This document shows, piece by piece, positions 39,501-57,500 of a stretch of DNA of 64,000 nt (the stretch's first letter is position 1; each line of letters starts with the position of its first letter). Source of the stretch: Schmidtea polychroa (taxonomy: Eukaryota); contig CM097885.1 of assembly GCA_044892525.1 (NCBI GenBank), positions 35,652,001 to 35,716,000 of the forward strand. Reading direction: 5' to 3'. The notes below the pieces were generated by a model. The model was not told the DNA's origin and searched no databases. It worked only from the letters and a program-made list of their open reading frames with translations. The translations under genes were made by a program, and so were the position numbers.

Positions 39501-42500
39501 ATTTCAAAGAATATATATATATATATATATATATATATATATATATATATATATATATATTCTTTGAAATGTGGTTTGATGTAAGTAGATGGATTGGGCA
39601 CCGCTGGCACAGGGCACCGCTAGCACAGTACCCCCCCTCCCCCCCGTCGAAAAGATTTTCAAAAATATTCTAAGTCTAAAAGTACATTTTTTTCAAGGTC
39701 AAATTTAAACAAAGACATATGACTCATCAAGGTCATTGAAACAAAGACCATGAGTCATCCTATGACTCATCAAATTTCTCAAGGTCATTTAAACAAAGAC
39801 CATGACTCATCAAGGTCATTTTCAAGGTCATATGACTCATAATATGACTCATCAAGGTCAAAAAAATTTTCCCAAGGTCATTTAAACAAAGTCCATGGCT
39901 CATCAAGGTCATTTTCAAGGTCGTATGACTCATACTATGACTCATCAAGGTCATTTTCAAGGTCATGTGACTCATCCGATGAGTCATAAAAATTTCCAAT
40001 GTCATTTAAACAAAGACCATGACTCATTTAAGGTCATTTTCAAGGTCGTATGACTCATTCAAGGTCATTTTCAAGGTCATATGACTCATTCAAGGTCATT
40101 TTCAAGGTCATATGTCTCATTCAAGGTCATTCTCAAGGTCATATGACTCATTCAAGGTCATTCTCAAGGTCATATGACTCATACTATGACTCATCAAAAA
40201 ATTTTCAAGGTCATCTGAGTCATCCTATGACTCATCAAGGTCATTTTCAAGGTCGCATGACTCATCCAAGGTCATTCCCAAGGTCATATGAGTCATCGCG
40301 ATGACTCATCATGGTCATATTATTATTTTTAAAAAATATTATTATTTTTAAAAATATTATTATTTTATTTTTAATTTTTTCAAAATTCCCGCCAACGAAA
40401 AATAATAATCGATCGCTCATTTTAAAGCTCAATCCAAGACCTTTCGAATGAGCTATATAACTTATTATTATTATTATTATTATTATTATTATTATTATTA
40501 TTATTATTATTATTATTATTATTATTATTATTATTATTATTATTATTATTAATATTATTAGTATTATTATTATTATTATTATTATTATTATTATTATTAT
40601 TATTATTATTATTATTATTATTATTATTATTATTATTATTATTATTATTATTATTATTATTATTAGTATTAATCTATAAACTCCGAGTCTATCCGACAAA
40701 ATATTTTGTCCCCCCATGGGTAATGCTCACAAAGGTACTGCTCACGCTCAACAACTCGCATTCGATTATTTTATTTTTTTAAGGTCATATCATTATTTTT
40801 CAAAATATTGCGTAATAATAATAATTTTCTTTAAATCGTTGATTATATGATAATATTTTTATTTTTGTTTTAATTATCGATTACTTAATAATTTAATTTT
40901 GTTTAAATCGTTGATTATATAATAATATTTTTGTTTTTGTTTTAATTATCGATTACTTAATAATTTAATTTTGTTTAAATCGTTGATTATATAATAATAT
41001 TTTTATTTTTGTTTTAATTATCGATTACTTAATAATTTCATTTTGTTTAAATCGTTGATTATATAATAATATTTTTATTTTTGTTTTAATTATCGATTAC
41101 TTAATAATTTAATCTTGTGTAAATCGTTGATTATATAATAATATTTTTGTTTTTGTTTTAATTATCGATTACTTAATAATTTCATTTTGTTTAAATCGTT
41201 GATTATATAATAATATTTTTATTTTTGTTTTAATTATCGATTACTTAATAATTTCATTTTGTTTAAATCGTTAATTATATAATAATATTTTTTGTTTTAA
41301 TTATCAATTACATAATAATTTCATTTTGTTTAAATCGTTGATTATATTATTTTTTTTGTTTTAATTATCGATTACGTTATTTTTTTTTTCAAGGTCATAT
41401 TATTATTTTTCAAAATATTATTATTTTCAAGGTCATATTATTAATTTTCAAAATATTATTATTTTCAAGGTTATATTATTATTTTTCAAAATATTATTAT
41501 TTTCAAGGTCATATTATTACTTTTCAAAATATTATTATTTTCAAGGTCATATTATTATTTTTTGTTTTAATTATCAATTACTTAATAATTTAATTTTGTT
41601 TAAATCGTTGATTATATTATTTTTTTGTTTTAATTATCAATTACATAATAATTTCGTTTTGTTTAAATCGTTGATTATATCTTTTTTTTTATTTTAATTA
41701 TCGATTATGTTTGTTTAAATTATCGACTATGTAATAATTTAATTTTGTTTAAATCGTTGATTATATTATTTTTTGTTTTAATTATCGATTACGTTTGTTT
41801 AAATTGTCGATTATGTAATTATTTAATTTATTATTATTATTGGGAAAGATAATAACGCCCGCGCGGAAGATGTTATTTTCAAAATTATTATTATTATTTT
41901 CAAAGTTTTAATCAATATTATTATTATTATTATTATTATTATTATTATTATTATTATTATTAATATTATTATTATTATTATTATCATTATTATTATTATT
42001 ATTATTATTATTATTATTATTATTATTATTATTATTATTATTATTATTATTATTATTATTATTATTATTATTATTATTATTATTATTATTATTAATATTT
42101 TCAAAGTTATTTTGAAAATTCTTCTTCTTATTATTATTATAATTTACAAATATTCATAAAACTTAATTTCTACCTCAATTACATGATTTTCAACATTTGC
42201 ATGATTATTTTAATAATTTTCAATATTTTCATAATTTTCTACATTTTCAATATTTTCATTATTATTTCAGGAACATTTTCATTAGTTACATGAACATTTT
42301 CATCAAATATTTTTCAAAGTAATATTTCCGTTAGCTTATTTTCAAACAGTTCTTATTATTATTGCAAATATTCATAAAACTTAATTTCTACCAAAATTAC
42401 ATGATTTTCAACATTTTCATCATTTGCATGATTATTTTAATAATTTTCAATATTTTCATAATTTTCTACATTTTCAATATTTTCATCATTATTTCAGGAA

Positions 42501-54500: not shown

Positions 54501-57500
54501 TATTGAAAATTATTAAAATAATCATGCAAATGTTGAAAATCATGTAATTGAGGTAGAAATTAAGTTTTATGAATATTTGTAAATTATAATAATAATAATA
54601 AGAAGAATTTTCAAAATAACTTTGAAAATATTAATAATAATAATAATAATAATAATAATAATAATAATAATAATAATAATAATAATAATAATAATAATAA
54701 TAATAATAATGATAATAATAATAATAATAATAATAATAATAATAATAATGATAATGATAAAAATAATAATAATAATAATAATAATAATATTAATAATAAT
54801 AATATTAATAATAATAATAATAATAATAATAATAATAATAATAATAATATTGATTAAAACTTTGAAAATAATAATAATAATTTTGAAAATAACATCTTCC
54901 GCGCGGGCGTTATTATCTTTCCCAATAATAATAATAAATTAAATAATTACATAATCGATAATTTAAACAAACGTAATCGATAATTAAAACAAAAAATAAT
55001 ATAATCAACGATTTAAACAAAATTAAATTATTACATAGTCGATAATTTAAACAAACATAATCAATAATTAAAACAAAAAAAATGATATAATCAACGATTT
55101 AAACAAAACGAAATTATTATGTAATTGATAATTAAAACAAAAAAAATAATATAATCAACGATTTAAACAAAAATAAATTATTAAGTAATTGATAATTAAA
55201 ACAAAAAATAATAATATGACCTTGAAAATAATAATATTTTGAAAAATAATAATATAACCTTGAAAATAATAATATTTTGAAAATTAATAATATGACCTTG
55301 AAAATAATAATATTTTGAAAAATAATAATATGACCTTGAAAAAAAAAATAACGTAATCGATAATTAAAACAAAAAAAATAATATAATCAACGATTTAAAC
55401 AAAATGAAATTATTATGTAATTGATAATTAAAACAAAAAATATTATTATATAATTAACGATTTAAACAAAATGAAATTATTAAGTAATCGATAATTAAAA
55501 CAAAAATAAAAATATTATTATATAATCAACGATTTAAACAAAATTAAATTATTAAGTAATCGATAATTAAAACAAAAATAAAAATATTATTATATAATCA
55601 ACGATTTAAACAAAATGAAATTATTAAGTAATCGATAATTAAAACAAAAATAAAAATATTATTATATAATCAACGATTTAAACAAAATTAAATTATTAAG
55701 TAATCGATAATTAAAACAAAAACAAAAATATTATTATATAATCAACGATTTAAACAAAATTAAATTATTAAGTAATCGATAATTAAAACAAAAATAAAAA
55801 TATTATCATATAATCAACGATTTAAAGAAAATTATTATTATTACGCAATATTTTGAAAAATAATGATATGACCTTAAAAAAATAAAATAATCGAATGCGA
55901 GTTGTTGAGCGTGAGCAGTACCTTTGTGAGCATTACCCATGGGGGGACAAAATATTTTGTCGGATAGACTCGGAGTATATAGATTAATACTAATAATAAT
56001 AATAATAATAATAATAATAATACTAATAATATTAATAATAATAATAATAATAATAATAATAATAATAATAATAATAATAATAATAATAATAATAATAATA
56101 ATAATAAGTTATATAGCTCATTCGAAAGGTCTTGGATTGAGCTTTAAAATGAGCGATCGATTATTATTTTTCGTTGGCGGGAATTTTGAAAAAATTAAAA
56201 ATAAAATAATAATATTTTTAAAAATAATAATATTTTTTAAAAATAATAATATGACCTTGATGAGTCATCGCGATGACTCATGTGACATTGGGAATGACCT
56301 TGGATGAGTCATGCGCCCTTGAAAATGACCTTGATGAGTCATAGGATGACTCAGGTGGCCTTGAAAATTTTTTGATGAGTCATAGTATGAGTCATATGAC
56401 CTTGAGAATGACCTTGGATGAGTCATATGGCCTTGAGAATGACCTTGAATGAGTCATATGGCCTTGAGAATGACCTTGAATGAGTCATATGACCTTGAAA
56501 ATGACCTTGAATGAGTCATGGTCTTTGTTTAAATGACCTTGGAAATTTTTATGACTCATCGGATGAGTCATATGACCTTGAAAATGACCTTGATGAGGCA
56601 TAGTATGAGTCATACGACCTTGAAAATGACCTTGATGAGTCACGGACTTTGTTTAAATGACCTTGGGAAATTTTTTTGACCTTGATGAGTCATATTATGA
56701 GTCATATGACCTTGAAAATGACCTTGATGAGTCATAGGATGAGTCATGGTCTTTGTTTAAATGACCTTGAGAAATTTGATGAGTCATAGGATGACTCATG
56801 GTCTTTGTTTCAATGACCTTGATGAGTCATATGTCTTTGTTTAAATTTGACCTTGAAAAAAAATGTACTTTTAGACTTAGAATATTTTTGAAAATCTTTT
56901 CGACGAGGGGGGGGTACTGTGCTAGCGGTGCCCTGTGCCAGCGGTGCCCAATCCATCTACTGATGTAATTTCTGAGCACCTAGTTACACAATTGGCATCT
57001 GGTTAAATTGAATTAGTTAAACAAATCAGCAAACTGATTTTGAGTGTATCTAAAACTCAAAAAGTATTTTAAGCAATGAAAAGATAAATATAAGATATTT
57101 GTCACCCAGTTAATGTATATATTTTGTATTATCTAATATCTCAATACTTTCTACATTAAACATTTTAAAAATAAAAAATTCGTTATAAAAAGTTTGAGTT
57201 GACGATTAATTTATTTTTGAAAGTGCTAGGCAAATGGATTAATTTGTAATATGATTTTTTAATCAAATTTTTTGTAATACTTATTTGATTTATTCATATC
57301 ACAGGATTCACAGTCTTTCCACAACGAACCGATCTCATTCAGCTGCCAATATTTCTAAATCTGATTCCAGCTTTGAAATATCTTCAAGGATTCCGCCGCG
57401 CTCATTGAGCAATGATCGGTTTTGTAAGATTTATTAACTTAAATTTGTTTATATCAGTGTTTACCGACCTGTTATTCGCCACTGAAACACTAATAAATAT

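Follow-up and report, generated by a model that had tools for sequence, protein, structure and literature searches.

A 17.4-kb palindromic element with Polinton ends in Schmidtea polychroa, probably a satellite of a co-resident helper

The window analysed here is a stretch of 64,000 nucleotides (nt) of Schmidtea polychroa (assembly GCA_044892525.1, contig CM097885.1, positions 35,652,001 to 35,716,000 of the forward strand). It lies on the contig called C1 below, in an AT-rich genome assembly of 781 Mb. At 39584..56961 (positions given without a contig name are those of the window) it contains a 17.4-kb palindromic element with ends of the Maverick/Polinton type, which is very probably a satellite dependent on a helper Polinton. 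Judged from its sequence, it would be one of many copies of a self-complementary satellite that is non-autonomous and depends on a Polinton/Maverick residing in the same genome, i.e., a member of an old lineage whose ends match those of its helper.

Structure of the element

Two inverted arms make up 96.2% of the element. The left arm (39584..47934, +, 8,351 bp) and its mirror, the right arm (48598..56961, −, 8,364 bp), are separated by a unique spacer, or loop, of 663 bp (47935..48597). The element begins with AGTAG and ends with CTACT, and the sequence GATGTA lies directly outside both ends (39578..39583 and 56962..56967), i.e., a 5'-AG/AGT end motif with a target-site duplication (TSD) of 6 bp. 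The coordinates, arms, spacer, termini and TSD given in a preliminary description of this DNA are thus exact. The alignment of one arm against the other comprises 8,030 matches, 42 mismatches and 571 gap columns. The large gaps correspond to whole units of tandem repeats or microsatellites, and the arms are 99.5% identical once these repeat-unit indels are set aside. Their unique inner 4.1 kb show 9 substitutions and one indel of 1 bp.

Long-read sequencing is known to produce fold-back chimeras as an artefact, and a palindrome may also be a local inverted duplication that arose after insertion. It must be noticed that no contig of the four public runs compared, all of which consist of short contigs, spans the element or the whole stretch. 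Either origin has nevertheless a practically negligible probability since: (i) the arms differ by 42 substitutions and by repeat-unit indels; (ii) many loci, distributed over four contigs of chromosome size, have the same loop and junctions, in copies with their own TSDs; (iii) arm and spacer sequence is covered in all 30 bins by the short contigs of the four runs, which come from four studies (one of them possibly the source of the assembly). Part of the stretch is present in 20 public runs from 7 studies.

The helper Polinton and the palindrome family

The terminal 30-mer of the element has 723 forward and 737 reverse matches in the genome, and its reversed control has none. Among the first 100 termini listed, 34 inward pairs were found, with a median length of 18.7 kb. 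The helper sample consists of 10 of these 34 pairs, picked for a length of 17-21.5 kb. Long open reading frames (ORFs) are present in all ten and a 6-bp TSD in nine, the tenth copy sitting in a microsatellite inside a larger inversion. The terminal inverted repeats (TIRs) measure ~1.0-1.4 kb in seven copies and 2.1 kb in one; they are split in another one and reach 4.4 kb in the rearranged copy.

A Pfam scan of 17 helper ORFs identified an integrase with a chromodomain (rve below cut-off), a Pox_A32 ATPase, an adenain-type protease (Peptidase_C5), TBP and a RING finger. The TBP-like gene (L016:5318-5779; PF00352, E 1.2e-15) is arranged head-to-head with the ATPase. An ORF of 1,349 amino acids (aa) is 66% identical over 330 aa to a frame that matches PF03175 (polymerase); it contains an endonuclease VII domain (PHROGs and PDB searches) as well as the Exo II and motif B patterns. 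A 426-aa ORF resembles double jelly-roll clusters (score 0.98, with a recognition value under the strong threshold of the tool), and a 362-aa ORF resembles unnamed viral clusters. The structure predicted for the capsid-like ORF from its single sequence is uninformative (predicted local distance difference test, pLDDT, of 35), and a scan of viral contigs with the helper ATPase gave no match. By gene content and termini, the sampled gene-bearing elements are copies of a Polinton with the element's own ends.

The partner that was sought through shared ends is thus represented by Polintons of 17-21 kb with an identical terminal 30-mer, an integrase, an ATPase, a protease, a polymerase and a capsid-like gene. 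The termini, which are identical, and the 6-bp TSDs support the earlier proposal that the element derives from a Polinton/Maverick, is non-autonomous and was integrated in one piece by a helper acting in trans. Long TIRs with internal tandem repeats are also the architecture of foldback transposons, and the element could be one of another superfamily (P/Galileo- or Mutator-type) with a mere resemblance to Polinton ends. This is extremely unlikely: the element and gene-bearing Polintons have the same terminal 30-mer and TIRs that align over 1.17 kb, the TSDs are of 6 bp, and the 17 scanned ORFs of the 10 sampled terminal pairs include no transposase of another class.

Three further features of these termini were recorded. 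Three same-strand termini at C1:8751814, 8771456 and 8791162 are spaced by 19.6-19.7 kb, which suggests a tandem array of helper-length units. The TSD is GTTGTA at three of the sites read (L003/4, L011/12 and L021/22) and GATGTA in the window, which may reflect a target preference. At L001/L002 and L037/L038 the flanks beyond the termini are themselves inverted repeats, and the termini thus lie inside larger palindromes.

The palindrome itself is repeated in the genome. With the centre of the element as query, near full-length matches were obtained at 24 of the 40 scored places, window included. The whole 9-kb inner palindrome is present at four other places with 96-97% identity; others carry various central deletions, one of which leaves a loop of 53 bp. 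One deletion form (1-3902/1-4458) was seen twice, at C3:97.6 Mb and C2:79.8 Mb. The spacer is 98.6-99.4% identical in three other copies and 92.9% identical, with a deletion, in a fourth. A 29-mer of the spacer has 206 matches in the genome, and a 31-mer of the arm has 1,528 (733 + 795). Among the first 100 arm-marker matches listed, 35 convergent pairs and no divergent close pair were found, and the inner distances 2526, 3050 and 3205 are each repeated among the pairs. The convergent pairs, which include those of a second-terminus family (see below), lead by extrapolation to an estimate of several hundred palindromes. An exact 6-bp TSD is present in 7 of the 10 family copies whose ends were read. 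The palindrome is thus multi-copy, and most copies have individual TSDs: neither TSDs of another length, nor a transposase of another class, nor a unique local origin, each of which would have contradicted the preliminary description, was encountered.

A related palindrome (L051, C1:42658400-42668300) shares 41733-47736 with the element; its outer tandem repeat, of ~250 bp, is a different one, and the 9.4 kb on either side of its centre include no recognised terminus.

Composition of the arm and age of the lineage

From its end inwards, the left arm contains: (i) a helper-type TIR (39584..40757, +), with the AGTAG terminus, a 16-bp tandem repeat, a poly-C tract, a TCAAGGTCA/ATGACTCA repeat array, a (TTA)n stretch and, at the inner end, a short interspersed repeat, which aligns over its full length with helper TIRs (84%; L009, L017); (ii) an AT-rich tandem-repeat block (40758..43790, +) with units of 72, 38 and 221 bp and (ATT)n, unequal in unit counts between the arms, which is possibly a stuffer; (iii) a helper-derived block of 790 bp (43847..44635, +) with a broken RING-finger gene (44095-44632, over two frames), inverted with reference to the helper and 86-89% identical to it in both nt and aa; (iv) a non-coding inner core (45856..47919, +), common to palindromes with a different Polinton TIR (81-86% to L052, long matches of 74-79% to L054 and L055). 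In the right arm the mirror copy of the RING block, with the same breakage, is localized at 51898..52686 (−), and the helper-type TIR, with the CTACT terminus, at 55899..56961 (−).

Beyond the TIR (i.e., the first 1,174 bp) the arm is colinear with neither end of the helper. The repeats of ~3 kb have no match to helper loci in masked blastn, and the remaining 3.3 kb of inner arm, together with the spacer, match helper loci only through the short interspersed repeat. In tblastn with 12 helper ORFs (polymerase, integrase, ATPase, protease, capsid-like and others), the RING gene is the sole match in the element. The absence of core genes stated in the preliminary description thus holds, and the element is not an autonomous Maverick/Polinton. 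The broken RING gene present in each arm (PF13920, E 8.8e-10) had been overlooked. Its frame is 95-105 aa long in each of the five palindromic copies examined and 179-182 aa long in four of five helper loci, the pattern being absent from the fifth (L005). In the helper, this gene immediately follows the TIR on its inner side and is oriented towards it; in the element it lies 3.1 kb further inward and reads away from the TIR. Compared with helpers, its 81 codons show 5-9 synonymous and 8-12 non-synonymous differences, which is uninformative on selection. Hidden coding in the core was considered and rejected: in tblastx the frames matched in a divergent arm are filled with stops, and the interspersed repeat is the sole match in helper loci. 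The Rfam matches of the left arm and spacer (four, all sub-threshold) are not credible.

The arm is thus a mosaic in which the TIR of the helper is followed by repeat blocks, by the RING gene, inverted and broken, and by a non-helper core, and this order cannot result from the one-step copying back of a helper end. An origin as a simple snap-back defective genome, i.e., a helper end copied back through a template switch before its integration, is very unlikely for this reason. It agrees with the derivation of the TIR and RING block from the RING end of the helper. On the contrary, the RING block lies in the opposite orientation and 3.1 kb away from its place in the helper, the arms are not colinear with a helper end, ~6.3 kb of each 8.35-kb arm are without helper match beyond microsatellite and the short interspersed repeat, and palindromes with another type of TIR have a homologous core and spacer. 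The part of the preliminary description according to which one end was copied into a palindrome is on these grounds not supported as such a simple event.

Fold-back forms of Polintons do exist elsewhere in the genome, which is a further point in favour of a snap-back origin. Among 91 scored PF03175 matches, all five divergent close polymerase pairs have palindromic centres: L045 to L049, at C1:235389794, C3:32539944, C1:264968626, C1:126064150 and C1:139684154, with loops of ~1150, 1535, 0, 570 and 370 bp, respectively. From their sequences, they look like fresh fold-back Polintons with polymerase sequence in both arms. The loop-less one (L047) is centred inside the polymerase gene and could be an artefact, since long-read chimeras may explain it. 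The five loci suggest that fold-back genomes arise repeatedly in the Polintons of this genome, which is a plausible start for a satellite lineage.

A second type of palindrome gives an indication of age. The palindrome L052 (C1:5347548-5362270) shares the core 45856-47919 at 81-86% and has a different AGTAGT terminus. In the genome this terminus has 309 matches, and the median length of its 33 pairs is 14.5 kb. Of the four elements with this second terminus that were checked, L052, L054 and L055 (14.5-15.8 kb) are palindromes whose core and spacer are homologous to those of the first type, and the fourth is a gene-bearing Polinton of 16.4 kb (L056/L057, C1:239139717-239156094). A 6-bp TSD is present at both of the two whose ends were read. 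The proteins of this sister Polinton are 63-96% identical to those of the first helper (ATPase 96%, integrase 88%, TBP 63%). The cores of the two satellite types are 74-86% identical, close to the 77-89% between the DNA of the helpers. These values fit a co-divergence in which each satellite type would have kept the TIR of its helper; a swapping of TIRs between helpers is a possible alternative. It is proposed that the satellite lineage may be older than the split of the two helper subfamilies. Since core and spacer are common, at 74-86%, to palindromes with the TIR of another helper, the element corresponds to an established satellite lineage and not to a fresh defective genome. A fragment of signal recognition particle RNA (L052:5567-5665; Rfam E 3e-4, below the gathering score) was found in the second-type palindrome L052 only.

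The short interspersed repeat has a 16-bp internal palindrome and is fixed at the inner end of helper TIRs; its appearance is presumably Helentron/HINE/DINE-1-like. Its 24-mer occurs eight times in the element within 40690..55966 (+ at 40690, 43802, 45683 and 48804; − at 47705, 50827, 52708 and 55943) and once per helper TIR. Its role as an amplified cis signal is refuted by 17,399 genomic matches and by a solo copy outside the element (window ~1335-1415), and it is thus a passenger which is not element-specific. Elsewhere in the window, a 513-aa hAT transposase-like frame (PF05699) lies at 9218-10759 (−) and a host exon with a Ras-association domain (PF00788) at 700-1194 (+).

Arm correction, proposed mechanism and comparison with known systems

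The arms of five copies were compared over 4,037 ungapped columns. The two arms of one copy differ at 8-13 positions (mean 9.8) vs. 12-41 (mean 25.4) for arms of different copies; the arms are thus corrected against each other. Of the 74 variable columns, 33 are singletons, and in 33 of the 41 others the two arms of each copy agree. Copy-private variants are found on both arms in 28 cases and on one arm in 33. At the loop-side sites 47901 and 47924-47925 the arms a and b differ in all four other copies and are equal in the window copy, therefore the asymmetry was inherited with the whole element and a conversion tract reached the loop in the lineage of the window copy. Some alleles are common to several lineages on one arm only (e.g., arm a of L042 at 44336, 44819 and 45706), and at a hybrid locus one half is of the window type and the other arm is 83%-divergent: recombination between elements thus occurs. 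The TIRs of helpers follow the same trend, with 5-13 differences within the copy in five of seven helpers and a mean of 31.6 between copies.

Polintons replicate by protein-primed strand displacement, and replicons of this kind are the established biology behind the steps proposed here. The protein-primed polymerase of the helper would start at the TIR and displace one strand. Since 96% of this strand is self-complementary, it would fold back on itself to give a duplex of 8.3 kb closed by a loop of 663 nt, and the end of this duplex would recreate an origin. Mismatches of the folded strand would then be resolved arm against arm, and the resulting linear molecule would be inserted by the helper integrase with a 6-bp stagger. 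The lineage may keep the TIR of each helper through recombination or co-evolution; it probably started as a fold-back or rearranged genome, and repeats and foreign DNA would have been taken up later. The dependence on a helper is very probable, as stated above, and the full fold-back mechanism is likely for the family, though with less certainty. The arm patterns are those that a folded single strand would leave, and chromosomal gene conversion could leave the same.

The latter point belongs to another explanation, according to which the element is a giant foldback transposon dependent on the helper. It would be moved or copied as a duplex by the helper integrase (perhaps with the polymerase) with no fold-back step, and the arms would be homogenised by host conversion. 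The TIR and TSD data fit it equally well. The patchy sharing of alleles on a single arm and the hybrid locus with its 83%-divergent arm show ectopic recombination, and central deletions leaving a 53-bp loop fit the processing of a chromosomal cruciform. On the contrary, hundreds of copies need a replicative step, and Polintons self-replicate by PolB according to a review (PMC6431247). Moreover, identical deletion forms recur at separate loci, thus variants are copied as units. Movement as a duplex is for these reasons unlikely, though far less so than the other alternatives.

Several observations weigh against the fold-back satellite: (i) three of the ten family copies have no exact TSD, one needing an extra ACT (at its right end, L021/22), one having none and one having inverted flanks; (ii) of nine terminal pairs with arm markers, four contain only one and are 10-13.6 kb in length; (iii) the 1,349-aa ORF of the helper has no PF03175 match in the Pfam scan and no polymerase match in PDB, and the strict patterns of motifs A and C fail in it; (iv) in two of the seven helpers the TIRs differ within the copy at 27 and 47 positions, as much as between copies; (v) chromosomal gene conversion after insertion could equally homogenise the arms, and five copies cannot discriminate; (vi) no intermediate of replication, no particle and no transcript were encountered.

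The first-type palindromes measure 17.1, 17.4, 18.2 and 18.9 kb (plus one of 32.6 kb) vs. 17.1-21.5 kb for the helpers, and the second-type palindromes 14.5-15.8 kb vs. 16.4 kb for one gene-bearing copy. The length of the satellite is thus near that of the helper in both types, which is only a hint since the first-type helpers were selected by length and the second type has a single helper. Packaging in helper capsids, with a length tuned by the repeat stuffer, is speculative. A true satellite of an endogenous polintovirus, i.e., self-complementary, dispensed from second-strand synthesis after fold-back, adopting the TIR of each helper and held near the helper length by its stuffer through capsid packaging, may be envisaged tentatively, and is rather doubtful as a whole.

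The debate on the replication of animal Polintons, and on whether they form virions, still relies mainly on gene content. As palindromes that are nearly complete and end like their helper, the hundreds of copies would be a sequence record of this replication. Arm-to-arm correction can test the single-strand panhandle model, and the length of satellites vs. helpers can test capsid packaging, both from existing genomes. The ~1,500 arm-marker matches indicate that the family may total several megabases of unstable inverted repeats, which repeat annotation would split into unclassified pieces.

Non-autonomous Polintons, foldback transposons and snap-back genomes are already known separately. A Maverick expansion in planarians (10.64898/2025.12.11.693146) and the silencing of Polintons by piRNA (PMC8532177) are on record. 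Palindromic Polintons are mentioned neither in the available text of PMC3014272, PMC8504770, PMC11662393, PMC8532177, 10.1101/2024.01.15.575659, 10.1101/2022.07.12.499685 and 10.64898/2025.12.11.693146, nor in that of the review of Arkhipova and Yushenova (PMC6431247), which gives a Polinton length of 15-25 kb. The literature searched, with subscription journals, supplements and Repbase outside its scope, contained no description of giant palindromic Polintons. A large, helper-matched and arm-correcting family of palindromic satellites thus appears undescribed, though Repbase may already name such families without their structure.

According to Barreat and Katzourakis (PMC8097293), vertebrate Mavericks have TIRs of 46-1,447 bp (mean 402), a length of 12.7-24.6 kb and a 6-bp TSD. 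The element resembles Mavericks/Polintons by its AGT-type 5' end, its 6-bp TSD, a length within this vertebrate range and a TIR shared with a co-resident gene-bearing family. It differs from them by the lack of polymerase, integrase, ATPase, protease and capsid genes, by its amplification as a palindrome family and by an inverted repeat of 8.35 kb instead of the 46-1,447 bp of vertebrate Mavericks. The helper TIR, the absence of core genes and the dispersed copies with individual TSDs bring it close to the non-autonomous Polintons.

The latter, reportedly described by Kapitonov and Jurka in 2006 and also said to be in Repbase, are internal-deletion derivatives with helper TIRs, mobilised in trans; unlike them, the element is a 96% palindrome with a non-helper core common to two TIR types. 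Self-complementary snap-back genomes are known in adeno-associated virus (AAV) and other viruses, and panhandle intermediates in adenovirus. The element is likewise self-complementary and helper-dependent, with origins at both ends, and its arm correction is that predicted for a panhandle. Unlike snap-back defective genomes, it is heritable, integrated with TSDs, long-lived and mosaic, and it is not colinear with one helper end. Finally, foldback transposons (FB of Drosophila, Galileo) have very long inverted arms, tandem-repeat blocks and a loop, and P/Mutator-type membership expects a cognate DDE transposase and a TSD of 7-11 bp, with which the 6-bp TSD does not agree. The element shares with them long arms, tandem-repeat blocks, a loop and variable central deletions; it is much larger, and has a Polinton TIR and a 6-bp TSD instead of a P/Mutator-type DDE transposase.

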